Shown here: one piece after another, positions 1,420-30,395 of the stretch | Numbering within the stretch: position 1 is the first letter of the stretch | Layout: each line of letters begins with the position of its first letter | IMG/VR virus record: IMGVR_UViG_3300013132_000051 | Location: 1 to 63,522 of that record | Length of the DNA stretch: 63,522 nucleotides | Source: a virus | Lineage: Duplodnaviria > Caudoviricetes | Direction: 5' to 3' (one strand) | Notes under the pieces: model-generated | Database searches by the model: none | The model's input: only the letters and a program-made list of their open reading frames with translations | What the model was told of the DNA's origin: nothing | Translations under genes and position numbers: made by a program

Positions 1420-2334
1420 ATGAGCGACCTTCGCGCCCGTGTAATTCGTCTCGCCCGCGCCCGACCGGAGCTTCGCGCCCAACTCCTCCCGCTCGTGAAG
1501 GAAGCGCGGGTCACGGAGGAACTACTCCGGGTCAAGTACGTCAACCTCGGCGATTTCGGCGGGACGAACCCGATCCAGGACTCTTGGCTCCTGGAGGTCG
1601 CGGGTCCGACGTTCGACTATCGGGACGAGCTAAAGAGGCTCGGTCTGCGATGGGACCCCTCTTCCAAGACTTGGTCGCTTCACGCCACGCTTCCGAAGTA
1701 CGGGAACCCTCGCCTGGTCGCGGAGTACGAGAAGATCCGTCGGCTACAGAAAGCCGCGTACCCGAAGCTCCAGGAGCTAGCCGAAGAGCACAACCGCGTC
1801 GCTGAGGAAGCGAACAAGGGCCTCCGCCCCAAGGATCCGCGAGAGCTAGCAGAGCTAATCGACCGCCTCGACCGGATGGAGCCCGCGCTCGGGCGGGCGG
1901 GACTCGTCCTAGAGCGTAGGTTCCCTAGCCGGTATGACGCTTGGGAGCCCTTCGTTCTGATCAAGGGCAACACCTACCCCCTCGCGAACCTCATGAAGAG
2001 CCACGGGTTCCGCTGGAACCCGCGCGAGAAGGCGTGGTCGATGGCTGCGGCGGAGTTCTCCGTCGTCGGTCCGAAGTGGATGGGCGAAGTCGCTCGGTCG
2101 TTCCCCGCCGCCCCTCCGAAGGATGAGGGCGTCGGCGTCTTTACGGCGATGAGCAACGCGGAGCTGAAGAAGTGGATCTCCCGCTACATCGCGGGCTACG
2201 ATCCCGAAGGCTTCTACATGGACGGCGAGCGTTCCGATACGGAAGCCTACGCCTACTACTTCCGTTACCTCCGGGGGCTCAAGCCCGCCGAGCAAGACAA
2301 GCAGAAGCAAATCTACGAGCGTTACGACGTATGA
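1420..2334 (+). CDS. leader-peptide protein with two DUF5710/HARP-like repeats
   Basis: N-terminus MSDLRARVIRLARARPELRAQLLPLVKEA; repeats GPTFDYRDELKRLGLRWDPSSKTW and GNTYPLANLMKSHGFRWNPREKAW. Confidence 0.8.
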   Translation: MSDLRARVIRLARARPELRAQLLPLVKEARVTEELLRVKYVNLGDFGGTNPIQDSWLLEVAGPTFDYRDELKRLGLRWDPSSKTWSLHATLPKYGNPRLVAEYEKIRRLQKAAYPKLQELAEEHNRVAEEANKGLRPKDPRELAELIDRLDRMEPALGRAGLVLERRFPSRYDAWEPFVLIKGNTYPLANLMKSHGFRWNPREKAWSMAAAEFSVVGPKWMGEVARSFPAAPPKDEGVGVFTAMSNAELKKWISRYIAGYDPEGFYMDGERSDTEAYAYYFRYLRGLKPAEQDKQKQIYERYDV

Positions 2335-2762
2335 GCGACCTTCGATCCAAAGTGATTCGCCTCGCCCACGCGAAGCCGTCGCTGCGCCCGCACCTTTTGC
2401 CGCTGCTAAAGACGGCGAGGGTTTTTCCCACGCATGAGCAATCAGACGTGCTCATCAACGCTGGGATTACGTTTCTTGATTACACGCCGTTCGACAATGA
2501 GGTGAGGATCGGGGAGGTTCAGGGCAACGACCTCGCTCGGCTCATGAAGAGCTTTGGATTCAAGTGGGTTCCGAAGGACCGCGAGTGGGTCATCCCCACT
2601 AAAAAGTTTGAAGCGACCGCCGACAAGTGGGTGAAGCGCCTCTCGCAGCTTCGACCTCTGCCTCGCAAGCCGGGGCGCAAAGAGCATGACCGGAGCCTCC
2701 TTGAAGAGGAGCGGAGACGCGAGTTGGATCAGGACGACGAGCTTGACTCTGACTACCCGTAA
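2331..2762 (+). CDS. leader-peptide protein, partial paralog of 1420-2334
   Basis: ATGA overlap at 2331; MSDLRSKVIRLAHAKPSLRPHLLPLLKTA; LARLMKSFGFKWVPKDREW repeat. Confidence 0.8.
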   Translation: MSDLRSKVIRLAHAKPSLRPHLLPLLKTARVFPTHEQSDVLINAGITFLDYTPFDNEVRIGEVQGNDLARLMKSFGFKWVPKDREWVIPTKKFEATADKWVKRLSQLRPLPRKPGRKEHDRSLLEEERRRELDQDDELDSDYP

Positions 2763-2779
2763 CGCGGGTAGCGTTAGCC

Positions 2780-3679
2780 ATGAGCTTCGGATGGACAGGA
2801 TTCTTTCGGCAAGGCGCGTGGCGCGAGCTACGCCGGTTCCTCCTGAATCAGAAGCGGGACGCTCTACCCCGTATTCGGGCGATCAACGCTGAGTTGTCCC
2901 GTATCGGGTACGTCCGTATTCTTTATGCGAGGACGGACCCGTCGAACCCTAACTCGCCGATGAGCGAGCGGAGGATCGGCCTGGACGTGTCGCCGGGGAC
3001 GAGCCTAGAAAAGCTCCTCCAGGCGTACATCGCCCAAGGCGGCAACCCGTTCGACATCTCGATGTTCCTGATTCCCGACTCGTTCATCTTCGTCGAGAAT
3101 GAGGAATCTACCTCCCCCGTCTCTGAAGAAATCGACGAGACGGGCGTCGAAGGCGAGCCGATACGCCGAGAGACGGCTCCCTACTCGGGGATCGTTTACC
3201 CGATCTCTGCCGATCCGGTTATCGGCGGGCTCTACACCGGAGGGTGGCTACCGCTGTGGAGGTACCCGCCTCGGAAGTTCGGCAACAACATCACCTACAT
3301 CACCGAGTCGGCGGATCTAGCTCCCGCGACGAGACAGCTCCGGGACTGGGCGAATCGGGACATCCGGGGCCTCCGGAACAACCTAGAGGCCCGGATCATC
3401 AAGCTCTGCGACCTCCGCGAGCAGCTCCTCCTAGAGCGGGATGAGATTCTTCCCCAGGCCGTCGGCGGAGCCACTGACGGGGTTTCGTTCAACCCGGACG
3501 TTTTTGCGGTAACGCACCACACGTCCGGCATCATCCGTCAGATTGACGACGTGTTCTACACGATCGCCGACGGGTTCTACGATTTCGAGAACCCGCGTCA
3601 GTCCCAGCCCAACCCCCCGTACCCCGTCCTGCTCGAGGACGCGCCGACGGGCGAGGAGGCGTGGACCGCGTTCGGATAA
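2780..3679 (+). CDS. hypothetical protein, probably virion-associated
   Basis: 299-aa ORF directly upstream of the baseplate operon; role inferred from context only. Confidence 0.7.
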   Translation: MSFGWTGFFRQGAWRELRRFLLNQKRDALPRIRAINAELSRIGYVRILYARTDPSNPNSPMSERRIGLDVSPGTSLEKLLQAYIAQGGNPFDISMFLIPDSFIFVENEESTSPVSEEIDETGVEGEPIRRETAPYSGIVYPISADPVIGGLYTGGWLPLWRYPPRKFGNNITYITESADLAPATRQLRDWANRDIRGLRNNLEARIIKLCDLREQLLLERDEILPQAVGGATDGVSFNPDVFAVTHHTSGIIRQIDDVFYTIADGFYDFENPRQSQPNPPYPVLLEDAPTGEEAWTAFG

Positions 3680-3731
3680 CCGCTTCCGCGTTCCCTTCTA
3701 TCGCCCCGGAAAGACGGAGCGCGGAATAGGC

Positions 3732-4850
3732 TTGTCTACCGACGTACAAATCGCCTTCCTGTGCCCCCACGTCGTGGGGGAGGAACGGGTCGCGCTCTCG
3801 CCGGACCGCCAGACCCTCACGACCCGCTACCCCATCAGCGGGGCGAAGCTCCTCAAGGTACTCGTCAACAACGAGTACGAGGTGCTACCGGGAAGCGGGA
3901 TCTCGACGCGGGCGGCTCTGTCCGCCGCGCGACCGGAGCCCTATCTCGTCGTCGCGGGCGAGCAGGAACTCACAATCAAAACGGCGTTTCGTCAGGTCAC
4001 GACGACGCTCCCGCCCGGATACCTGACCGCTGACCAGCTCGTTGGAATTCTCAACGCGCTCGCGGTTGTGCCGGGGGACCGGCCTTTTTTCGTAGCCGAG
4101 AAGGACGAGCTATCGACGCTGGTGCTGAGAGAGAACCAGCGCGTCGGCCCTGAGTCGCAGATCAAAGTGCTCGGACCCGCCTCGGCGAACCTCGGGTTTG
4201 ACTTTCAGTTCGGCAGCGTCGGTCGCGTTGTCGTCCCGCCGTTCGTCCTAGTGAGGCGGACCGCTGTGGGGGCGACCTCGGACCTGGACCTCGGGTATGA
4301 GATCCGGTTCCGAGCCCCGGTCCCGTCCAACTACTTCTTTTCGGTGACCTATCCGACGCCCTGGAACCTGTGCCCTCGGTGTCGGGGGACCGAAGTCGAA
4401 AACGACTACCGCTTCAACGACCAGGGAGAAACTCTCCAGGTCGCGGACAACAACCTCCTCTATCAGGGCTGTCTCAAGATTATCCTCACGGAACTCGGGT
4501 CGAACATCTACGCGAAGTGGTACGGGTCGAGCGTCTCGTCGAGCATCGGCTCCAAGGCCCTCGCCGGTACCCAAGCGACGCTTCAACAAGCCGTTAGGAC
4601 GGCGCTCAATAACTTCCAGGGGATCCAGACCTCCCAGGCCAAGTACCAGCGCATCACCGCCAAGGAGCGTCTCTTCTCGGTCGATCAAGTCTCGGTCGTT
4701 CCGGATGCCCAAGACCCGACCGTATTCTTGATCAACGTCCAGATCCGCAGCTACAGCTCGGACCCGATCAACATCGACATCGTGTACACGGCTCCCGGAG
4801 CCTACGCCCTGCCCGGAACGAATAGGCTATCGCTGGGGAGATACGGATGA
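3732..4850 (+). CDS. baseplate wedge subunit with C-terminal gp25/GPW-like domain
   Basis: LYQGCLKIILTELGSNIYAKWYGSSV matches the gp25 Q-I-IL-T-G-YGS pattern; precedes the baseplate J-like gene; TTG start chosen to avoid overlap. Confidence 0.75.
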   Translation: MSTDVQIAFLCPHVVGEERVALSPDRQTLTTRYPISGAKLLKVLVNNEYEVLPGSGISTRAALSAARPEPYLVVAGEQELTIKTAFRQVTTTLPPGYLTADQLVGILNALAVVPGDRPFFVAEKDELSTLVLRENQRVGPESQIKVLGPASANLGFDFQFGSVGRVVVPPFVLVRRTAVGATSDLDLGYEIRFRAPVPSNYFFSVTYPTPWNLCPRCRGTEVENDYRFNDQGETLQVADNNLLYQGCLKIILTELGSNIYAKWYGSSVSSSIGSKALAGTQATLQQAVRTALNNFQGIQTSQAKYQRITAKERLFSVDQVSVVPDAQDPTVFLINVQIRSYSSDPINIDIVYTAPGAYALPGTNRLSLGRYG

Positions 4851-7800
4851 GCGTTCTTCAGGTACTCGCCCCCGACGGCAACTACTACACGAGCATCGCC
4901 TGGTCCACAACCACGACTCGGCGATTCTTCGCGGGCACCGTACCGACGACGGCGGCGGACCTGGAAGTCTCGATCCGGGGAGCGCCGTTCTCTAGCGACC
5001 CGTCTCTCATCTCGTTCACGGCCTCGGGATGGGTCGTTCCGAATCCGGCTTCGTATCCGGACGGGTTGGACCTGTTCTCGGGCACGAACGTCGTCCAGGT
5101 CCGATCTATCCCCCTCGTCGGTTCGCCTTCGGCTCCGGTTACGGCGACGGTCTACCTACTCTCGGACACGGCTACCGTCGGAGTAGCCCCTCCGACCAAT
5201 ATCACCGTCGAACGCCTCGACAACGCCGTCAACATCTCGGCCCAGGGACTGACGGATACTCGCGTCACCGGCTACAACTTCTACGCCTCGCTCCAACCCG
5301 GAGGCGGGGCCGTAGGCTACTTCCGAATCAATCTCAATCCCATCACCGTTCCCGTCCTCCAACAGAACGTCGTCGAACTCTCGTCCCTCACGACGAACAA
5401 CCTCCCGGCGAACGCCGACCCGCTCTTCGTGAGACTGTCTGTTTCACAGGAAAACTCGTCCCAGACTACTCTCCAGACCGACGTAGACTCGCGAGTCGAG
5501 ATCCCCGAAACGGTTACTGAGATCCAAACCAGCGTCACCCTCTCCTCAGTCGAGACGCTCCGCTACTACCAGTTTCTCCACCGACGCAGCGCCGGTCTCT
5601 CCTCCGACCCCGCCACCGTCCCCGTGGGTGCCTTCTCGGCGCTTCCGGCGAGCGAGCCCCTCTACTACATCGTCACGGCGCTCTACTACGATCCGCTAAC
5701 CCAGACCGAGTACGAGTCCTACTACTCGCCGGAAGTCGTCGCCAACCCCATCGACGTTCGCATCACGACCCAGACCCTCCCCGTCGTCACTCGTCAACAG
5801 ATCCTCCAAGACGCCGTCGCCTCCATCTACCGTAAGGATCGGAACATCTCCGTCCAGCCCGGAAGCGTCCCTCGGGACGTGTTCCTGGACCCGTTTACCT
5901 CGGAAGCTGAGCGGATTCGCTTCGTCCTCGACTTCATCTACCGCGCTAGCTCATTCGACACGCTCCTGGGGATTGACGACCCGTTCGGTACGGGCTTCTC
6001 GATTTCTCCGAGCCGGTCTACCTACAAGCAGACCCTCGCCCAGTCTTTCTTCCTGGCGAACGCTGACACCGCCCAGACGATTATCAACGCTGCCTTCGAC
6101 AAGCTCGCCGCCAACTTTGGCGTGACTCGCATCCCCGGCAAGCGCGCTCTCGGCGAAGTCCGATTCTTTACGAGCGTAGTTCCGACCGCTTCGCTACAGG
6201 TACCCCTCGGAACCCGCCTCTCCGGAGGGGGGAGGACGTTCCTGACGACGAGGTACGTCGAGATCCCCGTCTCCCAACTCGCCTCCTTCTTCAATCCTTC
6301 GACCGGACAATACTCGGTTCGCTGTCCCGTCCAAGACAACAGCGCGGGGGCGGGAGGGAATCTCGGCCCCCGCCAAATCACCTCCGGCGCTCCTTACGGG
6401 CTGAGCGTCACGAACGACGCGGCGCTCTTCGGCGGTACGGACAGCGAGACGAACGCCCAGCTAGCCGCTCGCGCTAGGTCGGCTCTCTCAGCGGTCGATA
6501 CCGGAACGCAACAGGGCTACCTCCAGACCGCCGCCGGGGTTCCGGGCGTACTAGAGGCGAGCGTCGTCGCTTCGGGTTCGCCGTTGATGATGAGGGATTT
6601 CGACCCCGCTACCGGAGAGCACGTCGGCGGCAAGGTAGACGTTTGGGAACGGGGGTTCCAGGTCAACACCCTCACCGACACGTTCGCCTTCACTTACGTC
6701 CGGAAGCTCAACATCCAGTTCGTCACGGTCGGACCTCCGGGAGGGTACCGATTCCGGGCGGTGGACTCGGACCTCTCGCCGACGAACCCCCTCGCCCAGA
6801 TGCTCGACTATCCGGCGCTGGGGCTGGGCCTCCGAAACGCGACGACAGGGCTCGACTTCGACCTAACGAACGTCCAGATCGTCACCTACGACACGATACA
6901 GCTCTCGTTGGACGTGCCTCAGCCCCCGGTCACTTTGACCGACGTAGTGCTCGGGGACTACCGGCTTCGTACCGGCGAGAAGTTCGTCCTGACCCGCCAG
7001 CCCGTTATCTTCCTGAACTCGCTCGTCGGTGAGTCCTCGGGAACGATCGGCGCTTCGGCCTACCGGCTCGTCCATCCTAACTCACCCCTGGAGCTAGGGA
7101 GGTCTACGAAGGCGGGAGACTACCTGCTCGTCACGGGAAGCCCCGACCCTGGAGTCGTCTCTCCGTCGGGGGCGATTCTGTCGGTCCTCAACGAGCAGCA
7201 CGTCATCGTCGGCGAATACATCGAGTACGTCAACCGCCTCGGTGCGGACTCGCTGTCTATCGTCGTGACGAACCTCACGTCCACCTTCACCTACAACGGC
7301 CCGTACACCCCGCCGTCGTTGGGTTCGCCAGACTACACGATCATCGAGGGTACTCAGACGGTTCCCGTCGGTATCAAGCGCACCAGCGGATCGAACATCG
7401 CCGACGGCGAGACGATTCTGATTAGCTACTCGCATGACGAGAACTTCACGGTCTCCTATCAAGTCAACCAGGTCACCAGCGCCCTCCAAGACGCCATCGA
7501 CGCGAGCCGACATATCACCGCCGACGTAGTAGCGAAGTCGTCCGTCCCGGTGTCTATCGACCTGAAGGCGACGATTATCCTCAACCGGGGTGTTCAGCAG
7601 TCCTCGGCGGACCAGGCGATCCGAACGAACCTGAACCTCTTTTTCTCGACGCTTCAGCTAGGCACCTCCATTCGGCGGTCGGACGTAATCGGGGTAATCG
7701 AAACGACGGTGGGCGTGTCCTACGTCGTGCTGCCGCTAGTACAGATGGCTCGGATCGTCGGGTCTATCGTCGTCAAGGACGAGATTTCCACGACCCAGCT

Positions 7801-8275
7801 CGACGACGCGCTGCGAGTAGCCGCCTGGTCGAACTCCGAAAACGCGGTCTGGCTTCTCCAGGACGAGCTATCCGCTCCGACGACTGACGGCGGAGGGCCT
7901 CCCGGCGAATTCCGCCGCGTCTACCAGGACGACTACGCGCTCACGCTTCAGGAGTCGTTCCCCGACCAGCTCGGTCGGGAAGCCGGTCGCTCCTACATCA
8001 TCGGCAACAGCGGTCTAATCATCCCCGGCTACTCCGACGACGTAACGCTCGCCGCCCAGGGCTACAACACCCCCGACGAACGCGCCGCCCGCCGTCAGGA
8101 TATTACCCAGAACCGCGTTCTCGTCTCGCTAAAGGTCGGAGACGCGCCGTCGAGTCACCGATACTGGGCGACCTACATCGTCGGGTTCTCGGACCTAGAA
8201 GCCGACATCACCCTCTCGTCCGCCGAGTACGCGGCTCCGGGGTCCTGGTCCTTTACCTACGATGAGGATCGTTGA
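4847..8275 (+). CDS. baseplate J-like (gp6-type wedge) protein
   Basis: PGSVPRD, FDKLAANFGVTRIPGKRALGEVRF, GGTDSETNAQLAAR and GT..GY...VPGV motifs typical of Baseplate_J. Confidence 0.85.
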   Translation: MSVLQVLAPDGNYYTSIAWSTTTTRRFFAGTVPTTAADLEVSIRGAPFSSDPSLISFTASGWVVPNPASYPDGLDLFSGTNVVQVRSIPLVGSPSAPVTATVYLLSDTATVGVAPPTNITVERLDNAVNISAQGLTDTRVTGYNFYASLQPGGGAVGYFRINLNPITVPVLQQNVVELSSLTTNNLPANADPLFVRLSVSQENSSQTTLQTDVDSRVEIPETVTEIQTSVTLSSVETLRYYQFLHRRSAGLSSDPATVPVGAFSALPASEPLYYIVTALYYDPLTQTEYESYYSPEVVANPIDVRITTQTLPVVTRQQILQDAVASIYRKDRNISVQPGSVPRDVFLDPFTSEAERIRFVLDFIYRASSFDTLLGIDDPFGTGFSISPSRSTYKQTLAQSFFLANADTAQTIINAAFDKLAANFGVTRIPGKRALGEVRFFTSVVPTASLQVPLGTRLSGGGRTFLTTRYVEIPVSQLASFFNPSTGQYSVRCPVQDNSAGAGGNLGPRQITSGAPYGLSVTNDAALFGGTDSETNAQLAARARSALSAVDTGTQQGYLQTAAGVPGVLEASVVASGSPLMMRDFDPATGEHVGGKVDVWERGFQVNTLTDTFAFTYVRKLNIQFVTVGPPGGYRFRAVDSDLSPTNPLAQMLDYPALGLGLRNATTGLDFDLTNVQIVTYDTIQLSLDVPQPPVTLTDVVLGDYRLRTGEKFVLTRQPVIFLNSLVGESSGTIGASAYRLVHPNSPLELGRSTKAGDYLLVTGSPDPGVVSPSGAILSVLNEQHVIVGEYIEYVNRLGADSLSIVVTNLTSTFTYNGPYTPPSLGSPDYTIIEGTQTVPVGIKRTSGSNIADGETILISYSHDENFTVSYQVNQVTSALQDAIDASRHITADVVAKSSVPVSIDLKATIILNRGVQQSSADQAIRTNLNLFFSTLQLGTSIRRSDVIGVIETTVGVSYVVLPLVQMARIVGSIVVKDEISTTQLDDALRVAAWSNSENAVWLLQDELSAPTTDGGGPPGEFRRVYQDDYALTLQESFPDQLGREAGRSYIIGNSGLIIPGYSDDVTLAAQGYNTPDERAARRQDITQNRVLVSLKVGDAPSSHRYWATYIVGFSDLEADITLSSAEYAAPGSWSFTYDEDR

Positions 8276-11200
8276 TGTCTGACGACCCCAAGTCGAGGGG
8301 AACCTCGGGACTATTCGCGCCGCTCCCGGCGGTACTGGCGGGGCCGGACGCTCAGAATCCTGCGCCCTTCGATCAAGAAGGCCAGGTAGACGAGTCTCGA
8401 GTCCGGACGATTGCCGACCAGATCGTCCGGGTCTTTCTCAACTCGTTGCCGTCCAACTATGTCTCCCAGACGAAGGGGCCGTACTACGCGCAGCAGTTCC
8501 AAGCCGCCGCCGAAGAGCTAGCCCGCATCCAAGTAGCCGCCGAAGACGCCTACGAGGACGTGGACTTTGACTTCACGCGCTCGGAGGTGCTCTGGCAGTT
8601 CCTCGCGACGCTGGTGTTTCCCTGGGCCGAAGAAACAGGGCTCCCGGACATTCAGGGAGATGTCTCGTTCCGGACGTTCCTGAAAACGATGGTCGCGCTG
8701 CTACTCAAGGGCAGCAAGGAAGTCACCCTCCTCCAGGGCGTCGAGGCGCTTACCGACGCGGAAGTCGCAATCGTAGACCGTTCCCTTTACAGCCCTCTGC
8801 TGAAGGATCGGTTCACGTTCGACATCAACGTCTCCAATCATCGCCGCACGACCGTCTGGGACGACACGACGGCGAGCGACTATGACCACTACCACACGGT
8901 CAGCATCAACGCGGCGGGCGAGGGCAAGACCACCGGCACCGTGTGGACGGGGGCGACCGGACCCGACCACACTCACGACATTGCGGGGTTCCTGACTGAG
9001 AGCGTATCCGCGACGGGGCTCGGGTCGCACACCCACGACCTCCTATCGAGCTTCCCCGACCTCCCCGTCGAGCTAGCACGGAACGTCCGTCTAGTAATGC
9101 GGGCTCTGAAGCCCGCCCACACCCTCTACGAGTACACGAACCTCTTTCGCGAGACGTACCGCCAGGTCTTCAGCGACGAGGTCTCTCGCTACGAGATCGA
9201 CAGCTACTACTACGATGACCTGCGGAAATACTGCACCGGCATCAAGGAAGTCGGCAGCTCCTCGGGCACGGTTCTCTCGGACCGCTACACGCTCAATGAC
9301 ACGGTCAGCTTCCGGGCGGTACGTCCGGGCGCTCCGCTTCGGGTATTCGACGGTTCTGGGATCGTCCTCGGGCTTTACCAAGTCCGCGAGGTACTCGCGT
9401 TCCCGTTTGGCGATGACCCCGTAGCCCGTCCGTATATCACGGCCCCCTCGGGGGTGGCGAGCACCGCGACCGTGGTAGCCGGGGCAATCATCGATCCGGC
9501 TCGGGACTGGGCCGTAGATGTAGTAGCGGGCGAGGTTCTGACGTTCCTCTCGGGGCCTAACCTCGGTGACTACGTCCTAGAAACGGTGCTCGGCTCGGGC
9601 GGCGGCGCTCTCGGTACGGCGACCGGCCCTGGAACAGAGGTGGTCCCCGCGCCCTGCTTCGTGCGAGTAGCGCCCCGGTTCCCGGCGACGGGCTCAGTCA
9701 TCTACTCCATCGAAGTAGACCGCCTCGGGATTCGCAAGCCGATTCAGGTCGTCAACGAGGACGTGTCCTCGCAGTTCTACTCGCCCCCCGTTGGGAACAA
9801 CGCGACCGTCATCGTCGCGAAAGGCCCGCTTGTCCGCGACTACGGCGACGCGACTCCGGCGACGCCTCTGGATGTAGTAGTCGAGCTAAACGGCGTACCC
9901 CAGACGGTCGAGAGTCTCAACCCGTACACGGGCGAGATTACCCTCGCCCCTCCGGGTATCGCCCGATTCCTACCGGCCTTGGGCGATACCGTTACGGTTT
10001 CGTACTGGTGGTTCCCGATGCCCCTTCAGGGCATGACGGGCCTCAATACGAAGGGCCTCACTCTCAACAAGTGGGACCTCCGGGGCGGAAGGACTGCGAC
10101 CTCGCCGACCTCGGGCGGGCTATGGGGCGGGTTCCGAACGACCCGTTTCCCGATGGGCGTCGCACTCGGGCGGTTCCCGACGCGGAAGCCCCCAGTACGA
10201 GTCGCTCACAGGTACATCGCGTTTGAGCGGGCGTACACGGCGGCGATCAACTCGCCGACGACGCTGCTTCTCAATCAGGCACCGGGGCGCGTTACGGTGC
10301 CCTACGCCGAAGCGGACGTTCCTTCGACGACCGTTCAGTACGAGGGTACCTCCCCGCCGACGGCTCCTTGGGTCCAAAAGGGCGCGCTCTCGGGAGTCTC
10401 CAACGGGGACTTCTACACGCTCAAGAAGACCTCGGGCACGGAAGTCGGATATTGGAGCCGGGACTTTGAGCTACCCGTCGCCTCGGTCATCGCGGCGGCG
10501 ACCCGCATCCAAATATCCAGCTACACGCTCGATGGCGTGTTCACGGGTATCGGACTCGGGTTCCACGACAACCAGCGGCTCTATCTAGCGGGGGCGCTCG
10601 TCGTCAACGGCGTCAAGCACGTCGGATTGCTCGCCCGTCCCGGTAGCCCTAGCGAGTTGAGCTCCTGGATTGTCGGACCTCAAGTCGCCGGTCGAGTCAC
10701 GACCTCAACGACGGTCGTTTGCAAGCTGAGCGAAGCGCCGACGGTTCTGACGCCGGGAGATCGGTTCCAGATTCTCTCGGGCAACCAGTCGGGCGTCTAC
10801 ACGATCAGCCAGATCTTCAGGGACCGAACTCGGGACCGGATCACGTTCGTTATCTCAGGGACGTTCCCGGCGAATCCCGCGCTCTTCGGCAACCGGGACG
10901 TGACGCTCGCTTTTGAGACGCTATGGGACGAAGCGGTCTGCTCGTGGCGCATCTACGCGAACACGCGCAGCCAAACCGCCCAGGTCTACTTCGGGGGTTC
11001 AACGGGGGCGGGGTTCGCCCGTCTTACGGCCTCGCCGGTTCTAGCGTCACCTGCGTACCTCGGGCCGGATGTCTTGCCCCAAGGATCCGGGCGGTTCGTA
11101 TGGGGCACGTTCTCGCGCTCGGCGACCTCGGAAGTCGTTTGGGATTTCATCCGGTACTTGTCTACGCCGGACGGGGGGACTCGGTTCTCGCGGGGCACGG

Positions 11201-13806: not shown

Positions 13807-13852
13807 GTTCCCTATCCCTAACGCTCGGAGAGCTATTCAAGAGGGCGGACCT

Positions 13853-14497
13853 TTGATACACGACGACAACCTCGGCACTCCCCGGCAGGGACTCAAACTC
13901 AGCTCCGCTATTCGCTACGCCGACGCGCTCAGGGGCGCGAAGGGGCGGTTCCTCATCGAGATGAAGGACGCCCGGACGGGCGAGCTTCTCCATTACCAGG
14001 AGAAGGACAACATCATCACCCGCGACGGAGGCATCCTCGCGGCGATCTGTTTCGCTTCGGGGACGACCGGCGCTCCGGGAATCTCGATGCTCGCGATTGG
14101 GACGGGGGCTACGGGTCCGCTGCTCAACCCGGACGCTCCGACGAACGTCCAGCGGAGGCTCAACAACGAGATCGCTCGCAAGGCGTTCTCCTCGGTCACG
14201 TTCCGAACGGCAGCGGGCGCAGCGTCGCTCACCGGACCGACGAACATCGTCGATTTCACGACCACGTACAACGAGTCGGAAGCCGTCGGGCCGTTGAATG
14301 AGATGGGGTTGATTCGGCCCCTGAATCCGGGAGGGTCTCCCGCCGTTCCGAACCTAAACGGAGGGCTTCCGTTCCCCAGCTATGACGCGACGGTAGACGT
14401 GACGACCTGCGACGTACTCGTCAACTACCTAACCTTCGCCGTTATTTCTAAGCCGAGCACGGCGATCTTGACGATCACCTGGCGTCTGACTTTCTGA
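13853..14497 (+). CDS. tail collar/fibre-anchor-like protein (DUF3751-like)
   Basis: NIIT..G, AIGTG, L.NEIARK, EAVGPLNEMGL and terminal ISK....LTITWRLTF pattern. Confidence 0.65.
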   Translation: MIHDDNLGTPRQGLKLSSAIRYADALRGAKGRFLIEMKDARTGELLHYQEKDNIITRDGGILAAICFASGTTGAPGISMLAIGTGATGPLLNPDAPTNVQRRLNNEIARKAFSSVTFRTAAGAASLTGPTNIVDFTTTYNESEAVGPLNEMGLIRPLNPGGSPAVPNLNGGLPFPSYDATVDVTTCDVLVNYLTFAVISKPSTAILTITWRLTF

Positions 14498-14503
14498 GGA
14501 TTC

Positions 14504-17851: not shown

Positions 17852-17854
17852 AGA

Positions 17855-20800: not shown

Positions 20801-20998
20801 TACTCACAGGTCGAGATCAACCTCGGCCCCCTCGCGCCCCTGTTCGTGAACACCAACGGCGATTGTCCGGTTCTCATCGGCGTCGTCCTACAAGACACGG
20901 CGGGGGCGCGGACCAACTACAACTGGAAGAACGTCCTCCCCACGACAGCGACGGCGGGTTGCCGAGGCATCGTCGGCCTTGATATGGTAATCCCGTGA
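17855..20998 (+). CDS. virion structural (fibre-associated) protein
   Basis: HLTDPAGAHPATAIS...NVEGALGEL motif seen in phage fibre proteins; G/P/T-rich; same operon. Confidence 0.65.
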   Translation: MPRSVDPSLILTGVGSASPGSVSQSALGPAEAGPVAGGLEAHLTDPAGAHPATAISIQDVFERYLSGNVEGALGELAALVPPAPGVVGSSGPPWLGSTNTGIPDWGVLKLWDGALNLLGWVNDPEEIYPYYWRAPVSLNGDGVDPSTDPTFNVVDGANTYTGGGAGLAHAAFATVSMGGGAASAYPSWRTLPALPASTVPDVGFVVSGIVSPADRGVLALVRWPAGTTSPWGAAANVTDIQDRCIAAIKLGLGLADGGGGCDGDPGGIFTEGSPTPYDFPGRAAGQWELDELHTGSARVPGTTAPASPDPTAGQVRLLTDPAAVSFSPGTVAGGMPIFGATSAATGGGTNGNFFAYRLPYLKDYSVATGIIYTPVVDKPRYLSRIAPASGTPVAQAGDYDDFTTDFWAIQIARYRHRHSLGTATVAFRRDDSFALVHFRRETYFEEFIRDGIIPTADKLYSVSLVDWALGFTVADTRNLTNVYPAAPPATSTAYSVNASEITEDPTGTTVPALAVGPSNTFTFAGTSTIFTSGVEYYVPRNPGTGAAAAQVTALDVGIDNVFLSSYRTHDTPPAPLSLPNALKNAVNQNPVFLSLSPFSYEGTELPDTDTISLTGTAPNQLFPGFLGLTKRQRIEFGFSDLTSGALNPATGAVAGISLGAGGTISFDGDKEIPAFTTDAKVRAFVRRPLVVDGTTGYPLPASPLTGFDILNSAAGTPKILYHSMLETTLVSPEYGNAANTSNAVYTTTKDREERFLDEVYRYPQDWASSGGLPAPTLANLVGPGLPSGLGAIDLPVRPAVGFWDGYYLLGRNATSLDAVSPPAPSAMRQELQVAGLPERNPPYTDGVVSPFPSRGILLFPQDDYSSGYDPIGPDYSAVTSPLGYRAYIRAFNAGAANVGNTSIIIRVWGVELSDFAFAAGPGPFGGGDLAIAIKVPGLTTFMNAGRVDGAGPSKQDPAIDGAGCRVIGPNTFDAVDPGSQITYSQVEINLGPLAPLFVNTNGDCPVLIGVVLQDTAGARTNYNWKNVLPTTATAGCRGIVGLDMVIP

Positions 20999-21882
20999 TC
21001 CGCGAAGCCCTACTATCTGAGATGGCAGGGCGGGTCGCGGCTCGTCATGAGATCCGCATCGCAGCGAAGCGGGCTTGCTTTTCAATCAACCGCACCGCCT
21101 CGGCCAACGGCCTCCTAGAGCGGTGCCTCGTCGCGATGGCAGAGGGCGCGCTAGTACCGGAGGACGGCTCCCCGGTACGGACGGCGGGGTTCGCCAACCT
21201 CGCCCGACGGCTCAAGCAGATGGCCGTGATGGTCGGGAAGTTCCCGAAGCTGTGGGAGCGCGTCAAGGAGTTCTTGGGCGTCGAGAGTCTCGCCGACCTC
21301 CCCGGTCGCATCACCGAGCTAGCCAAAGAAGGCTACAAAGCCCTCAAGCGCCTCATCGACAAGGCGTTCTCCGTGTGGCCTCTGAAGCTCTACACGCTCC
21401 CGGAGAGCAAGCTCTTTAGCTTGAACGCTCTCCTAGAGAAGATCGCTGACGCGAGCCCCGCGTTCAAGAATTTCCTTACTGATACCGTGAAGCCCCGCGT
21501 AGACCAGTTCGACGCATGGCTAAAGAAGTACCTCCCGGCTATCTCCAAGGTCGTGATGGTCGCGATTTACGTTTGGATCTGGCTCAACGTCGTCGAGTTT
21601 GAGTGGGATCTGAAGGGCATCATCGACGCCGCTACCGGCACGATCTCGCTTTCAGACTTGCTCACGAGCCTACCGGGGTCGATTCTCGGGGCGTTGATGA
21701 ACTCGCTCGGCCTCGGGACGTTCACGCTCCTACCGGCGGCGTATGCCGTGCGGTTGGCGCTCGTTATCTCCCGCCGCTACGTCACTTGGACGGGGAGCGG
21801 GTTCTCGTTCGACGCTGAGAAGCTCCGGGAGGACTTCAAGTTCAGCCCTGCCGTTGAAGAGCTTATCCCCGCGAAAGTTTGA
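20995..21882 (+). CDS. hypothetical helical protein with hydrophobic C-terminal segments
   Basis: GTGA coupling; VVMVAIYVWIWLNVV and ILGALMNSLGLGTFTLLPAAYAV hydrophobic stretches. Confidence 0.7.
   Translation: MIREALLSEMAGRVAARHEIRIAAKRACFSINRTASANGLLERCLVAMAEGALVPEDGSPVRTAGFANLARRLKQMAVMVGKFPKLWERVKEFLGVESLADLPGRITELAKEGYKALKRLIDKAFSVWPLKLYTLPESKLFSLNALLEKIADASPAFKNFLTDTVKPRVDQFDAWLKKYLPAISKVVMVAIYVWIWLNVVEFEWDLKGIIDAATGTISLSDLLTSLPGSILGALMNSLGLGTFTLLPAAYAVRLALVISRRYVTWTGSGFSFDAEKLREDFKFSPAVEELIPAKV
21846..21878 (+). repeat. 33-bp direct repeat, copy 1 (contains late-type motif)
   Basis: CCCTGCCGTTGAAGAGCTTATCCCCGCGAAAGT identical to 23983-24015. Confidence 0.9.
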
Positions 21883-21886
21883 GACT

Positions 21887-23965
21887 ATGGACGAACTAAG
21901 ACTCCAGACGATGCGACTCGCCTATAAGAATCCGTCGCTCCGGTCGCGGTTGATTCCGTTGCTGAAAGCCGCCGCCGAAGAGAGTCTCGTTGACGCTCCC
22001 GACACGGTATCCGCAGGCATCGAGCGCCAGGTCCGGTCGAAGCTCGGTCCGCAGGCTCTGGGCTTGATCAACCTCTATCAACAAGTCCGTCTCATGCACG
22101 ACGGAGCGCCCGGACCCGACGAAGGTCTCGCCCAGGCCTTCCGGACGGAGACAAAACTGTTTGCGCGGTCGATGATGCGAAAGCTCGACGGTCCGGTCGC
22201 CGCTCCCGCTGCTGAGACGCTCCTAAACCAGATTCAGAGCCTCAAGCCCCTCCTCCAGAAAGTCGAGCGGGGTTCCAGTACTGCCGTCTATCGGTTTCTC
22301 GGCCCACGTCTCGCCCAAGCAATCGCGGGCGCTCTCCAGGCCTCCGACATTGGAGTCGCGCTCCGACCTAGCCCGGACCAGGTCAAGTGGCCTATTCTAA
22401 AGATCACGAGCGCACCCGATCCGATCGGCGAGAAGACCTACTTCACTGAGGAAGAGATCGACCGACTGCCGGAAGCGGGTGCGGTAAACCAGCCTGGAAG
22501 CAAAGACAAGTTCGCTCTCAAAGCCCAAGCCGACGAGGCCCACGAGCAACAGCTCGACTGGCTAAACCGGGGCCGGGGTATCGACGCAGCTATCGGGGCT
22601 CAGGTCCTTCGCGGGGACCAGGGAGCTATTCCTGCGGATGACAAGGTCGATAGAACTCCTGATGGCAGATTCCAGACGAAGGACAAAGACGGGAGACCTC
22701 GTACCTTCAACTCCAAGGAGGAAGCTGACTTCTTCGCTGAGGGCGTTGGTAACGAGAAGCGCGCTGAGTATTTCAGCAACCTCCCTGAAGGACCGATTGT
22801 CCTAATCGGACCGAAGAAGGCGATTACGGGACGGGCCCAGGAGAAAGTAGACGCGAAGTACGGCGGGGACTGGTCGAAGCTCAAAGACTTCGTTCGCGCC
22901 TCCATCATCGTAGACCGGATCGACCAACTCGACGACCTGATGAAGAAGCTCCGGGCGTCTGGGCTAAAGCTCGCGGCGAAGCCTGATGACCGCTTCTCCA
23001 AACCGACCGAAGCTGGGTACCGAGACCTGTCGATGAACGTCGTGTACCCGAACGGTCACGTCGGTGAGCTCCAGATTCACCTCAAGCCGATGATCCAGGC
23101 GAAGGAGGGTTTCGGAGGCCACAAGCTCTACGAGAAGACCCGCAAGTTCTCAACCCAGGCTAAGAAAGAGGGTCGTTCGACGGTGACTCTTCAAGAGCAG
23201 ATCCTCATCAATGACCTGAACGACAAGCAGAAACAGCTCTACGGCGCTGCCTGGAGAGAGATCCAGGGCGAAAAGGGCGCTCTCCGGAACTACGTCGAAT
23301 CTGGGGGCATGGGAAAGCTATCTTTCGCCAGCCAGACCGTTCAGAACAAAGTCCAATACTTCCGGTATGACGGCGAGGCCGCTTACTGGGAGCGGGGGAA
23401 GTTCCCTATCGTGATCACCGACCGGGGGGAGCAGGTCGAATACAACCTCAAGAAATTCTTTACCAAAGCGATCAGCCTCACGAAGGATGAGTACGCGAAG
23501 CTCCGAAAGTCCCGCAACGCCAGCTCTTCTGGAGACTCTGACATGACCCTCCGTTCCAAGCTGATTCGTCTCGCCCACGAGAACCCGTCTCTCCGGGGGG
23601 AGATTCTTCCCCTGCTGAAGTCAGCTGCTTCCGGTCTGAGTCCAGAGGAGTTCCGTAACGCTTGGACAGCGTTGGAGAAGCTCGCTGATGAAGCCAGGCT
23701 CCCTAACCAAGTCAAAAGAAGACTCGATAGCTTCCTACACGGGAACCCGCAAATCGTTGAGCTACCTGACGGGCTCGACTCGCTTCTCAAGTACCTCCGA
23801 ATCGAGGTTAGTTGGTCCAGTCAATGGGACCACGCGGTCTTGAGTTGGGTCTGGACCACACCTGACAACAAGCCCAACACTCGGGTCATCGGCGAGATCG
23901 GAAATCCCAGCCCTGGTCAATGGTACTGGAAGGTCGCCTCCGGCGGGGGATCTCGGTACGTCTGA
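21887..23965 (+). CDS. leader-peptide polyprotein with RelA/SpoT-like (small alarmone synthetase-type) nucleotidyltransferase domain
   Basis: GPKK..GRAQEK, KLKDFVRASI, DRF.KPTEAGYRDL, GELQI and H.LYE motifs; leader at the N-terminus (ATG 21887) and again in frame at 23543. Confidence 0.75.
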   Translation: MDELRLQTMRLAYKNPSLRSRLIPLLKAAAEESLVDAPDTVSAGIERQVRSKLGPQALGLINLYQQVRLMHDGAPGPDEGLAQAFRTETKLFARSMMRKLDGPVAAPAAETLLNQIQSLKPLLQKVERGSSTAVYRFLGPRLAQAIAGALQASDIGVALRPSPDQVKWPILKITSAPDPIGEKTYFTEEEIDRLPEAGAVNQPGSKDKFALKAQADEAHEQQLDWLNRGRGIDAAIGAQVLRGDQGAIPADDKVDRTPDGRFQTKDKDGRPRTFNSKEEADFFAEGVGNEKRAEYFSNLPEGPIVLIGPKKAITGRAQEKVDAKYGGDWSKLKDFVRASIIVDRIDQLDDLMKKLRASGLKLAAKPDDRFSKPTEAGYRDLSMNVVYPNGHVGELQIHLKPMIQAKEGFGGHKLYEKTRKFSTQAKKEGRSTVTLQEQILINDLNDKQKQLYGAAWREIQGEKGALRNYVESGGMGKLSFASQTVQNKVQYFRYDGEAAYWERGKFPIVITDRGEQVEYNLKKFFTKAISLTKDEYAKLRKSRNASSSGDSDMTLRSKLIRLAHENPSLRGEILPLLKSAASGLSPEEFRNAWTALEKLADEARLPNQVKRRLDSFLHGNPQIVELPDGLDSLLKYLRIEVSWSSQWDHAVLSWVWTTPDNKPNTRVIGEIGNPSPGQWYWKVASGGGSRYV

Positions 23966-23982: not shown

Positions 23983-24015
23983 CCCTGCCGTTGAAGAGCT
24001 TATCCCCGCGAAAGT
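23983..24015 (+). repeat. 33-bp direct repeat, copy 2
   Basis: identical to 21846-21878; lies 16 nt before ATG 24032. Confidence 0.9.
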
Positions 24016-24031: not shown

Positions 24032-24466
24032 ATGACCCTCCGTTCCAATCTCATCCGCCTCGCCCACGCGAACCCGTCTCTCCGGAAAGACTTGCTCCCC
24101 CTTCTGAAGTCGGCGGGTAAGGGTCCGAACCAGAAAGACATCGAGTACGCGATTGTCGCGTTCGACGGGCTTTTCCACAGCGCGAAGATTCCGGGTGGTC
24201 TAGAAACTCGGTGGTTAGGAAACGGGAAGGACGTTGTCAACGGCGGGATTTTCGATCTCCCGGTTCCTAGAGGGTTTGAGTCCCTATTCAAGAGCATCTC
24301 AGTCGAAGTCCGATGGGTAAATCCGGAGTACGCCCGCGTGAGTTGGAAATACACCCACCCGAATGGCGGTCACAACGGATCCGAGATCGGCGAAATCGGG
24401 CGAGATCCGAAAAACGGAAAGTGGTACTGGAAGAACAACGCGCACGGGGGGCAAAGTTACGTTTGA
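24032..24466 (+). CDS. leader-peptide protein, paralog of the 23543-23965 domain
   Basis: MTLRSNLIRLAHANPSLRKDLLPLLKSA; shares EV.W, SW..T.P, IGEIG, WYWK and terminal GG.SYV/SRYV; SD AGGAG. Confidence 0.85.
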   Translation: MTLRSNLIRLAHANPSLRKDLLPLLKSAGKGPNQKDIEYAIVAFDGLFHSAKIPGGLETRWLGNGKDVVNGGIFDLPVPRGFESLFKSISVEVRWVNPEYARVSWKYTHPNGGHNGSEIGEIGRDPKNGKWYWKNNAHGGQSYV

Positions 24467-24469
24467 CCG

Positions 24470-25755: not shown

Positions 25756-26367
25756 ATGACCCCCGGCACGCACAAGCTCCCGCCGCTCCCCTACGAGTAC
25801 AACGCGCTAGAGCCGTTCCTCAGCGAGAAGCTGATGCGGCTTCATCACGACAAGCACCACGCCGCTTACGTCGAGGGGCTCAACGAGGCCGAGCTAGCTC
25901 TCGCGGCGGCGCGGGACTCGGGCGACACCCTGCTCGTGCCCTATTGGGAGTCGCGTCGGGCGTTCAACGAGGGCGGGCACGTCCTGCACTCGATCTTCTG
26001 GCGGGGCATGACCCCGGTCGGAGGCGGGGGCGAGCCGGGGGGCCTCCTCGGGGCGCTCATCGAGCGCGACTTCGGCGGCTACGAGAAGTTCCGCGCTGAG
26101 TTCACCGCCGCCGCGAAGGGCGTCGAGGGCTCCGGGTGGGCGATGCTCTTCTGGAAGCGGGGGATGTCGGGCGACCACCTAGAGATCGCCGCCGTCCTCA
26201 ACCACGAGAACCAAGCCCTGTGGCAAGGCGAGGTCGTGCTCGTCTGCGACGTATGGGAACACGCCTACTATCTGGACTACCTGAACGAGCGGGCCGAGTG
26301 GGTGGACGTGTTCCTCGACAACCTAGTTGATTGGGAACAGGCCGCTTCCCGTCTCCTCCGCCGCTAG
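25756..26367 (+). CDS. sod: Fe/Mn superoxide dismutase
   Basis: LPPLPYEYNALEP, HHDKHHAAYV, FNEGGH.LHSIFW, GSGW and DVWEHAYY signature; all four metal ligands present. Confidence 0.97.
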   Translation: MTPGTHKLPPLPYEYNALEPFLSEKLMRLHHDKHHAAYVEGLNEAELALAAARDSGDTLLVPYWESRRAFNEGGHVLHSIFWRGMTPVGGGGEPGGLLGALIERDFGGYEKFRAEFTAAAKGVEGSGWAMLFWKRGMSGDHLEIAAVLNHENQALWQGEVVLVCDVWEHAYYLDYLNERAEWVDVFLDNLVDWEQAASRLLRR

Positions 26368-26472
26368 TACGGGTATCCCGTCAAAGTAACGAGCCGGTGG
26401 GCGGTTTCTGTTGCTTCCCGTCCTTCACGCCCGACCGAAGCAGAGCAGCGTCAGGTCGAGCGACGGCTCTAT

Positions 26473-27123
26473 TTAGAATCTGCTGCTTCTAGGGTATCCC
26501 AGATACCGTAGAGACCTAACGTAGTCATCGTATTGAGCATCTTCATATGCTGTTTCTTTCATTATGTCAATATACTCATTGATAGACTTATGACGATCCT
26601 CGAAGGGGAAATCCTTAAAGATTATTGGGTTGGGAACGTCAACAAATACATTAAACGCCGTCTGATCTAGTTCGTCTGCGGCGTCTCTGGCACTCACGCC
26701 GGTTTTCTCAGCGGCCTCAATGTATTTGAAAATGAGACTCTTGATGCGGGGGGCTTCCATCATAAAATTGATAGTGCCACTATTCATCCTCACGTTGAAA
26801 GGGTCTTTCCTCTTTTCATAGAGATACTGCATATATTCCCCGCTAATCCCCAACTCCCCGTCTTGGGTACGCGGGAGGTCATCAATTTCAGAATTTTCAA
26901 GAATCTCTAGCGACAAAGCTACCAAGTAGGGTTCCCAATCAGTCTTCCGAACCTCACCAAGGATTTGATTGAACAGGCGGTTTGCCTCTGGGTTATCGAG
27001 AAGCCACTTGTGAGGCTTACCGGCAACCCGAGAGGCGCTCTCCTTGAGCAGCGGCAAGAGGGCCGGACGGAGGTCGGGGCGGGAGTGGGCGAGCCGGATG
27101 ATGCGGGACCGGAGGTCGGACAT
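26473..27123 (-). CDS. leader-peptide protein with AT-rich cargo region
   Basis: ATG 27123 gives MSDLRSRIIRLAHSRPDLRPALLPLLKESASRVA; downstream coding region is markedly AT-rich. Confidence 0.8.
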   Translation of the reverse strand: MSDLRSRIIRLAHSRPDLRPALLPLLKESASRVAGKPHKWLLDNPEANRLFNQILGEVRKTDWEPYLVALSLEILENSEIDDLPRTQDGELGISGEYMQYLYEKRKDPFNVRMNSGTINFMMEAPRIKSLIFKYIEAAEKTGVSARDAADELDQTAFNVFVDVPNPIIFKDFPFEDRHKSINEYIDIMKETAYEDAQYDDYVRSLRYLGYPRSSRF

Positions 27124-27164
27124 AACTTTGCCTTTCGATAAGGAAGATAACCCGCCCCTCGGAG

Positions 27165-28012: not shown

Positions 28013-28017
28013 GGAGT

Positions 28018-28850: not shown

Positions 28851-28857
28851 GGTCTAT

Positions 28858-29130: not shown

Positions 29131-29503
29131 GGGAGAACGCCTCTTCGATGAAGACCCGACGGGACGCCTCGTCCGGGAGTAGCTGCTTGAAGATGCACCC
29201 GAACTTCTCGCCGAGGTAGCGGGCTTGGAAGTCCGGCACCCGGAACTGCGTCTCGCAATGCCGGTTCACCAAAGGGAACTCGATGCCCTGAGCGAGCATC
29301 CGCTCGCACATATTGATGAACTCGGCTTGCACGCCGCAGAACTCGATGAAGGCGTGGGGCACTCCGCCGTGGAACACCTCCCCGTAGAACCGCTGGTTGA
29401 TGTCCCGCATCGAGCGGATCATCGCCCGCATCTCCCCAAGCGTGTACTGATGGCCGGGGAGCCGCGTATCGTCCGGTAGCTGGGCCACGTCGAGGTCGTC
29501 CAT
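29123..29503 (-). CDS. hypothetical protein
   Basis: ATG 29503 (MDDLDVAQ) 8 nt after a GCGTAA motif; HAFIEFCG...YLGEKFGCIF. Confidence 0.7.
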   Translation of the reverse strand: MDDLDVAQLPDDTRLPGHQYTLGEMRAMIRSMRDINQRFYGEVFHGGVPHAFIEFCGVQAEFINMCERMLAQGIEFPLVNRHCETQFRVPDFQARYLGEKFGCIFKQLLPDEASRRVFIEEAFSHE

Positions 29504-29558
29504 GATGTACGTTACGCCTTCGCGGTTTTCTTTATAGGGGCGCGAAGCTAGTAGGCTC

Positions 29559-29599
29559 GCCCGTGCGGCGGCGGGCACAACCCCAACGGCTACCGCCGT
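29559..29599 (+). promoter_or_regulatory. candidate H-type pseudoknot in 5' UTR
   Basis: S1 GCCCG(29559-63)/CGGGC(29572-76); S2 GCGGCGG(29565-71)/CCGCCGT(29593-99); 1-nt L1 and A/C-rich L3. Confidence 0.4.
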
Positions 29600-29621
29600 C
29601 GCTAGGTAGGAGAGAATCGAA

Positions 29622-30395
29622 ATGTCTGACCTTCGTTCCAATCTGATTCGCGTAGCGAGCACCCTTCCGGCGGGCGACCCCGGTCGGAGCGACATCCTCC
29701 ACGTCATTCGCGAGAACGACATTCGCCTCGCCTTCGGCAAGGCGGCGGCGTCCAAGCTCCCGACCCGCCTCGTCGCGGGCTACGACGGCTTCACGGACCA
29801 GATCCGCGAGCTGGCCGACACCGAAGCGAACGTCAAGCGCCTTCAGGCCGAGATCGACGCGCTCACAGGCGACCTCTCCAAGAAGCTGAAAGACGCCGAG
29901 AAGGGCTACAAGGACGCCGTCGAGGCGATCAAGGACGCCTACAAGGAGAACCTCTCGGCTCAGGGCAACGTCATCATCGAGCGCAAGACGAAGCTCGTTG
30001 AGGCGCAGGCCAAGCTCAAGGTCGTCGGCGTCAAGGGCACCCTCAACTCGATCCAAGAGGATATGCTCGCCGCCGTCACCGAGAAGTACGGCGCGGAAGT
30101 CGCCGCCTTCATCAAGGCGACGCAAGACGCCCTCCAAGAGCAACACCAAACGATGCGTATCTCGCTCGACGGCTTCGTGCTGGAGGCGCGCGAGGCGGCG
30201 GACAAGACGGCGGCGAGCAAGACCGCCCTCAGCTTCAACATCGTCGGCGTTCTCGCGAAGTTCCGCGACTACATCAAGAAGGGCTGGTCGAAGATCGTCG
30301 AGGTCGCGAAGGCGGCGACGGACGTGATCCTGGGCCGCTCGGCGAAGGTCGAGAAGGCGCACACCGAGTTCTTGAAGGCGCTCGGCTCCGTTTGA
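29622..30395 (+). CDS. coiled-coil protein with variant leader, probably an abundant virion component
   Basis: MSDLRSNLIRVA...; strong SD AGGAG; very biased codons; own terminator; several K/R-x-A motifs. Confidence 0.85.
   Translation: MSDLRSNLIRVASTLPAGDPGRSDILHVIRENDIRLAFGKAAASKLPTRLVAGYDGFTDQIRELADTEANVKRLQAEIDALTGDLSKKLKDAEKGYKDAVEAIKDAYKENLSAQGNVIIERKTKLVEAQAKLKVVGVKGTLNSIQEDMLAAVTEKYGAEVAAFIKATQDALQEQHQTMRISLDGFVLEAREAADKTAASKTALSFNIVGVLAKFRDYIKKGWSKIVEVAKAATDVILGRSAKVEKAHTEFLKALGSV

Follow-up and report, generated by a model that had tools for sequence, protein, structure and literature searches.

Encapsulin cargo-loading peptides and the helix-loop-helix of the P22 scaffold dock cargo or scaffold on the inner face of an HK97-fold shell, and such elements are portable and act at either terminus. 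In phage T4, Alt is reported to carry propeptides at both ends (PMC9026906), and a C-terminal propeptide of the SPN3US protease has been proposed to target that protease to the prohead (PMC7411985). Particles of phage G are described as holding 104 detected proteins, many of them enzymes (bioRxiv 10.1101/2024.12.16.628780). Here, we analyse the complete 63.5-kb IMG/VR virus record IMGVR_UViG_3300013132_000051 (Caudoviricetes; 63,522 nucleotides), which we call the window, and describe a peptide of 29 amino acids that is joined to several unrelated proteins, a toxin-like enzyme among them, in the window and in related huge phages. Sequence comparisons and structure prediction make a portable, virus-specific two-helix address tag a well-supported description of this peptide. 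Its best explanation, to which we give a probability of about 0.5, is that of an address label by which cargo would be loaded into the phage head.

A two-helix tag on unrelated proteins

The tag follows the consensus MSDLRSxxIRLAHxxPxLRxxLLPLLKxA and is present in the window as six full copies and one partial copy. Translation places it at the N terminus of five open reading frames (ORFs; tagged genes 1–5 in Table 1), starting at 1420(+), 2331(+), 21887(+), 24032(+) and 27123(−), and once more inside the third of these, at 23543, which is residue 553 of ORF 21887–23965. We built a profile from the six full copies; searched against the six-frame translation of the window, it returned exactly these six as full-length matches (53.8–62.4 bits, domain E-values from 2.8e-18 to 1.3e-15). 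The start of ORF 29622–30395 matches model positions 1–13 only (15.2 bits, E = 0.0016) and comprises just the first helix; nothing further was found in the window, the next-best match having E = 0.079.

The GC content at third codon positions (GC3) is 0.64–0.73 within the tagged genes and 0.36–0.58 in the in-frame stretches upstream of them, in the three ORFs tested, and because of this drop the ATG at the tag is likely the true start of the tagged genes. The six full copies share a mean nucleotide identity of 64% and amino-acid identity of 65%, and among 235 pairs of codons for an identical residue 130 use different codons. The copies are thus maintained as protein, and a recent DNA repeat is excluded.

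An initial annotation of the window, made by inspection of the sequence, had listed near-identical peptides at these positions and had read them as a portable tag on unrelated cargoes that is not a Sec or Tat signal; our translation and six-frame profile search confirm the list, and the reading as a self-contained, portable module that is no such signal holds. The head targeting and K/R-x-A cleavage that it had further proposed are plausible. Its figure of at least five unrelated cargo types was too high: unrelated cargoes do exist, but they fall into four types, with the partially tagged ORF 29622 in addition. Searches of the kind that this annotation had proposed find the tag in viral and metagenomic data, and no Pfam, PHROG or NCBIfam model covers it.

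One cargo family with either of two tags

The enzyme region of tagged gene 3 gives a Pfam RelA_SpoT match under the cut-off (E = 6e-4), and a family profile compared with the PDB finds Tas1 (6ox6, E = 9e-11). AlphaFold2 models the core at a predicted local distance difference test score (pLDDT) of 85–95, and a Foldseek search with the model places Tas1 at the top (E = 1.2e-5), ahead of Rel, small alarmone synthetases and CapRel. By profile and predicted fold, this first cargo of gene 3 is a RelA/SpoT-family enzyme closest to Tas1, a type VI (p)ppApp-synthetase effector.

Among 26 homologues of this cargo, nine carry the tag described here, at the N terminus, the C terminus or both (one of them as a weak match at residues 62–85), and eight carry instead a terminal peptide of the form R-V-x-x-R-[FYH]. 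None of the 26 has both, and the R-V-x-x-R-[FYH] pattern never lies away from the termini. That homologues of one cargo family bear either this tag or the R-V-x-x-R-F tag is a new observation, and it provides the strongest evidence here for reading both peptides as add-on labels rather than as parts of the enzyme.

Just upstream of gene 3 lies an ORF of 295 amino acids, 20995–21882 (+), that begins ...LSEMAGRVAARHEI. This start resembles the R-V-x-x-R-[FYH] tag and is its only instance in the window; on account of that resemblance, the phage represented by the window may use two tag types.

Position and shape of the tag

In relatives, the tag is found throughout the length of proteins. The counts of position, of copies per ORF, of residues and of Pfam matches among cargoes of relatives were made on copies picked by a DNA pattern that fixes 13 residues; the six window copies and eleven copies from LR745208, a 485-kb metagenomic phage, are free of the bias that this pattern brings. 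Among 117 distinct copies from IMG/VR and from loci of metagenome-assembled genomes (MAGs), 81 have Met at the tag start, 10 lie at the extreme C terminus, with the protein ending at, or no more than three residues from, K/R27, and the rest are internal. Several copies begin with Val, which suggests GTG starts; at least 81 of the 117 are N-terminal. Of 85 complete tagged ORFs, 6 have two copies, which in most cases occupy opposite ends. In the 152 best profile hits we counted 350 copies, of which 123 are N-terminal, 57 C-terminal and 170 internal; proteins of relatives have two to six copies each. This list of hits is skewed to multi-copy proteins because scores add up. The label 'leader' used in the initial annotation is too narrow in the face of these C-terminal, internal and multi-copy cases.

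An AlphaFold2 model of residues 1–552 of ORF 21887 (27-row alignment, mean pLDDT 79.6) gives the tag two helices, residues 2–14 and 16–34, at pLDDT 82–92, and puts linker residues 31–48 below 50. The helix-Pro-helix shape that had been expected is here a confident helix-turn-helix, and the tag is predicted to be a hairpin on a flexible tether, separable from its cargo. Such a small helical unit on a flexible linker is the arrangement of encapsulin-type or scaffold-type docking peptides of an HK97-fold shell, and the hairpin appears twice in the model of a second protein, P0088.

The terminal position of the tag on a flexible linker would also suit a handle recognised by a phage or host chaperone, unfoldase or protease adaptor, the tag then setting the timing or turnover of accessory proteins and not their location. 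Known degrons and adaptor tails are, however, much shorter than a folded hairpin of 29 residues. Moreover, ClpP (PF00574) and the ClpX zinc finger (PF06689) were each found in 0 of 5 records (LR745208 and four large relatives), with the controls positive in 12 of 14 and 10 of 14 genomes, respectively, making a phage-encoded ClpXP an unlikely reader of the tag in this clade and leaving a partner supplied by the host. We consider such a handle unlikely.

The composition of the tag bears on direct binding to DNA or membrane, by which a basic amphipathic hairpin would tether cargo to the phage genome (perhaps with co-packaging) or to the cell envelope. The 11 LR745208 copies carry a net charge of +2 to +5, Arg or Lys occupies positions 5, 10, 19 and 27, and the linkers of multi-tag proteins are rich in Lys. 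Yet the near-invariant Ala12, His13, Pro16 and Pro24, like the LLPLL block, favour contact with a particular protein over general electrostatic or lipid binding, and scans with Pfam and NCBIfam matched no known DNA-binding family, so that this mode of action, too, seems improbable.

The tags of multi-tag proteins are separated by linkers rich in Lys, Glu and Asp. Recurring motifs in the linkers of P0006, P0012, P0013, P0037, P0044, P0059 and P0118 include G-C-E-K-L-P-x-G-P-M-R-x-N-C-E-K-K, E-P-Y-M-K-G-x-F-T-Q-Q-E and R-F-E-E-G-K..D-P-T-E-N-M, and an element similar to these, E-L-P-P-A-L, is found in the scaffold-like protein of LR745208.

Proteins of this kind suggest that the tag might bind itself, the hairpins pairing into four-helix bundles, with multi-tag linkers assembling a network or a condensate, be it a viral factory or an inner body, single-tag proteins acting as clients and the destination not necessarily the capsid. 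The many relatives with two to six tags on charged linkers, the 6 two-copy ORFs among 85 and the presence of conserved residues all round helix 1 agree with this. So does an AlphaFold2 model of P0088, a natural two-tag protein of 63 amino acids, with four helices (pLDDT 76, predicted template modelling score 0.54) that align to generic four-helix bundles over 60–63 residues at a root-mean-square deviation of 2–3 Å and Z up to 6.7, a weak hint that the hairpins can pack on each other. The confidence of the P0088 model is modest, however, with an alignment of 14 rows only; Z under 8 is unspecific for helical bundles; and packing inside one chain is no proof of pairing between chains. A Foldseek search of the P0088 model against the PDB gave 0 matches. 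Self-binding of the tag strikes us as possible, though rather improbable.

A clade of huge phages

The baseplate J protein of the window shares 56% identity over its full length with that of LR745208 and 54% with a protein encoded on a 266-kb IMG/VR contig, with matches in two of the five records searched. The capsid protein of LR745208 (291 amino acids) matches gp27 of phage G (PDB 6wkk, E = 1.2e-59), and capsid proteins 93–94% identical to it are encoded in 5 of 5 large tag-bearing IMG/VR contigs (167–266 kb), for which CheckV gives a completeness of 39–59%. On the strength of this baseplate kinship, the capsid matches and the completeness estimates, the window is best taken as a piece of a phage of roughly 450–500 kb that belongs to a large clade whose capsid protein is of the phage G type; the capsid family has 2,094 clusters at E ≤ 1e-10.

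We searched for the spread of the tag with a 32-column profile against 1.84 billion representative proteins and obtained 3,573 matches at E ≤ 1e-3 and 404 at E ≤ 1e-10; all ten matches that were looked up are unnamed metagenomic proteins. A degenerate DNA pattern, back-translated from the tag, found 98 stretches in IMG/VR, many on contigs of 100–485 kb, whereas 596 Gb of prokaryote genomes yielded only three, each of them on a MAG contig. When the tag was compared by tblastn with 50,697 GenBank phage records, LR745208, a metagenomic record, was the only match, and there was no cultured member among them. LR745208 holds 11 copies and five IMG/VR records hold 15, 10, 12, 8 and 8, a range of 8–15 per 167–485 kb.

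The tag had been supposed to belong to no named family, and indeed Pfam, PHROGs and NCBIfam gave 0 matches over it. The LRV/HEAT-like repeats PF01816 and PF25591 had no match on the tagged proteins of the window at E ≤ 0.01, and a search of the ESM Atlas with the tag gave no usable match. In a literature search whose coverage left out subscription journals, we found no paper on this peptide or on LR745208, and none that joins huge phages with capsid targeting. The tag looks to be undescribed in the literature and libraries searched.

A Pfam match was found in 11 of 72 tagged proteins of relatives: ART-PolyVal in five, and pentapeptide repeats, DUF2958, DUF5710, an RNA ligase, DUF7919 and, weakly, bactofilin in one each. 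The five ART-PolyVal domains (PF18760), all of them outside the window, reach 41–47.6 bits and so exceed the Pfam gathering cut-off of 31.2. PHROG matches were found in 12 of the 72, all of unknown function save the RNA ligase.

Loading into the head as the proposed explanation

The tag is a module that selection maintains; it is specific to viruses and not tied to one position, and some homologues of the RelA/SpoT cargo have another terminal tag in its place. In the explanation that we prefer, a clade of phages of about 450–500 kb with a phage G-type capsid fuses the hairpin, as a docking tag, to some 8–15 or more unrelated proteins per 167–485 kb, and a single conserved partner would read it, the most likely destination being the interior of the assembling head. 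Tagged enzymes would then be carried by the virion and delivered to the host along with the DNA, in the manner of T4 with its capsid targeting sequence (CTS), and proteins with two or more tags on charged linkers would act as multivalent linkers in the same assembly.

The tag might be cut off after K27 or at K-x-A. At that end, 110 pattern-selected copies have K in 75, then E as the commonest middle residue (36), then A in 73. An L-K-E end would suit the (L/I)-x-E site at which the prohead protease removes the T4 CTS; however, E occupies position 28 in no more than these 36 of 110 and in two of the six window copies.

Iyer et al. (2017, PMC5512222) count ART and RelA/SpoT among the domains of those phage proteins for which packaging and injection are predicted, and T4 Alt is their prototype of a packaged ADP-ribosyltransferase. 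The cargo types of the tag (Tas1-like RelA/SpoT, ART-PolyVal and pentapeptide repeat) would fit head loading, as they are of kinds known or predicted to be injected. In LR745208, moreover, a tagged gene for 134 amino acids lies between a scaffold-like gene and decoration-like and capsid genes, downstream of the head protease. The layout of the window, where four tagged genes adjoin the baseplate block on its own strand, would likewise fit, and T4 and SPN3US, with their targeting propeptides, and the protein-rich particles of phage G give precedents.

Several observations weigh against head loading. Four relatives lack the tagged gene that LR745208 has between scaffold and decoration, which marks its placement there as an insertion and not a conserved feature. 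A tagged gene lies within about 3 kb of the capsid gene in three of six records, against about 1.6 expected by a rough estimate, which is not significant, and we rejected clustering near the capsid gene as an argument. We also rejected the idea that the tag is the coat-binding domain of the scaffold, as the scaffold-like protein beside the capsid gene is untagged and has a conserved C terminus of its own. None of the 12 PHROG-matched cargoes falls into 'head and packaging', there are no head genes among the genes of the window, and tagged gene 5 sits on the opposite strand among nucleotide-metabolism genes. The K-x-A ending is frequent in the pattern-selected copies but variable, not fixed, and conservation in these copies is partly by construction because the pattern fixes 13 residues. 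Finally, two of 87 scanned profile hits carry LRV repeats beside the tag match, and part of the 3,573 matches may be chance resemblance to LRV/HEAT-type repeats.

Were the tag a head-loading signal, one could list from sequence alone the proteins that a large, common clade of uncultured huge phages injects, and phages would be using more than one code for the same kind of cargo. A portable tag of 29 residues for an HK97-fold shell would, if true, also be a useful tool for packing proteins into capsids. Still more tentatively, huge phages may run a protein sorting of their own with peptides as exchangeable address codes, the phage G-type clade using this hairpin and others R-V-x-x-R-F. Such codes would load separately encoded effectors into the capsid for co-injection; these effectors would include Tas1-like nucleotide pyrophosphokinases, ADP-ribosyltransferases and possible DNA mimics, and multi-tag linkers would build an internal matrix. 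Should the cargo be bound for some other place, a docking module that is specific to viruses and present on 8–15 or more proteins per record would still point to an undescribed hub in the biology of huge phages.

Tagged genes and their surroundings

Table 1 Tagged genes, cargo domains and neighbouring features of the window
Feature	Position	Strand	Support
Tagged gene 1, 304 amino acids; tag 1420–1506; cargo with two DUF5710-like repeats	1420–2334	+	Profile, 55.7 bits
Tagged gene 2, 143 amino acids; tag 2331–2417; DUF5710-like cargo	2331–2762	+	Profile, 62.4 bits
Baseplate and tail-fibre block, untagged, same strand; flanked by genes 1 and 2 on one side and 3 and 4 on the other	2780–21882	+	
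33-nt exact direct repeat, copy 1, just upstream of gene 3	21846–21878	+	
Tagged gene 3, 692 amino acids; tag 21887–21973, linker, predicted RelA/SpoT-type (Tas1-like) enzyme, second tag, small domain	21887–23965	+	
Predicted RelA/SpoT-family cargo core, residues ~190–470 of gene 3	22454–23296	+	Profile against PDB, AlphaFold2, Foldseek
Internal tag copy of gene 3, from residue 553; heads a module of 140 amino acids	23543–23626	+	Profile, 55.0 bits
33-nt exact direct repeat, copy 2, upstream of gene 4	23983–24015	+	
Tagged gene 4, 144 amino acids; tag 24032–24115; small cargo with no assigned fold	24032–24466	+	Profile, 56.3 bits
Tagged gene 5, 216 amino acids; tag 27037–27123; orphan cargo	26473–27123	−	Profile, 56.3 bits
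Gene with degenerate tag; tag 29622–29660, first helix only; cargo largely helical by eye	29622–30395	+	

Tagged genes 1 and 2 have a DUF5710-like cargo in common, the Pfam match of gene 1 lying under the cut-off (E = 8e-4); the start of gene 2 overlaps the stop of gene 1, and its GC3 is 0.73 inside and 0.36 upstream. In gene 3, the last 140 residues (23543–23965, tag and domain) are 41% identical to the whole of ORF 24032 (E = 7e-34). This C-terminal module is a paralogue of gene 4, and because of that identity the internal copy looks like a tag–cargo unit fused onto the preceding gene. Gene 4 itself has just two relatives among 5.8 billion clusters, and the cargo of gene 5 has no sequence match in the PDB. 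The 33-nt direct repeat upstream of genes 3 and 4 may serve both as a promoter or regulatory element, or may mark the edge of a cassette; its first copy overlaps the 3′ end of ORF 20995–21882.

Four tagged genes abut the baseplate and fibre block on the same strand, two just upstream and two just downstream, and a tagged gene of LR745208 lies about 8 kb from its baseplate J gene. Within the block, 4847–8275 matches Baseplate_J (E = 1.1e-21) and 3543–4850 gives a sheath-initiator-like match. This layout would also agree with the tail or baseplate, rather than the head, as the place into which the tag loads cargo, much as extracellular contractile injection systems use N-terminal packing signals. 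But most tagged genes of relatives are dispersed over the genome, and the tube of a phage tail is expected to be filled by the tape measure protein; we regard this destination as very unlikely.

Other genes of the window encode DNA methylases, a dNMP phosphatase, a DNA ligase, an Fe/Mn superoxide dismutase and an orphan protein of 3,652 amino acids. The superoxide dismutase gene is complete and lies between tagged genes at 25756–26367 (+) (Sod_Fe_N, E = 6e-26; Sod_Fe_C, E = 4e-30). The 3,652-residue ORF, 33318–44276 (−), has zero Pfam or PHROG matches and is accompanied by an orphan ORF of 932 amino acids at 30455–33253.

The head regions of relatives show further features. Acidic scaffold-like proteins (L117–L120; L115, 13707–14975 (−)) have a common C terminus, ...G-A-V-S/A-K-x-A-S/G...L-S-K-L-W-E-S-A-P-D-V-S-K-x-F-G, in which K-x-A-[S/G] is kept in five of five sequences; it proves nothing, as it is located inside a conserved block. 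In LR745208 and several relatives (L115, 7526–11215 (−); L124, 11833–13776 (+); L117/L118), the next gene downstream of the capsid gene resembles LAGLIDADG/HNH homing endonucleases; in LR745208 it is part of an ORF of 1,229 amino acids. Near the head genes of IMG/VR record G001, L124 1813–5559 (+) encodes a protein of 1,248 amino acids with a eukaryotic-type topoisomerase IB core (Topoisom_I, E = 6e-29).

Comparison with known systems

Like the encapsulin peptides and the P22 scaffold domain, the tag is a short peptide or basic helix-loop-helix that is portable and found at either terminus. We know of no sequence relation between the tag and either of these, and the scaffold-like protein of this clade uses a different conserved C terminus.

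The T4 CTS of the internal proteins IPI–III and Alt is similarly a short peptide common to unrelated, fast-evolving accessory proteins, including an ADP-ribosyltransferase; it is reported to be portable to foreign proteins, and Alt to be processed at both ends (PMC9026906, PMC3012670). The CTS differs in being a peptide of 10–19 residues that is N-terminal, binds the scaffolding core and is cut by gp21, whereas the tag is a two-helix unit of 29 residues that is also C-terminal, internal or in tandem, and does not have the form of a short N-terminal propeptide. We noticed no likeness of the tag itself to the CTS, no dedicated comparison having been made.

In SPN3US and phiKZ-like phages, terminal propeptides have been proposed to target proteins, including the protease through its C terminus, into the prohead of a giant phage (PMC7411985). 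Those propeptides have 64–130 residues, are specific to each protein and end at A-x-E; here, one short conserved module is found on many proteins. The polyvalent proteins, finally, are described as bringing the same kinds of effector domain (ART, RelA/SpoT) into the cell with the invading DNA (Iyer et al. 2017, PMC5512222). They do so with many domains in one giant polypeptide, whereas the phages described here mostly use separate small proteins, each of them tagged.

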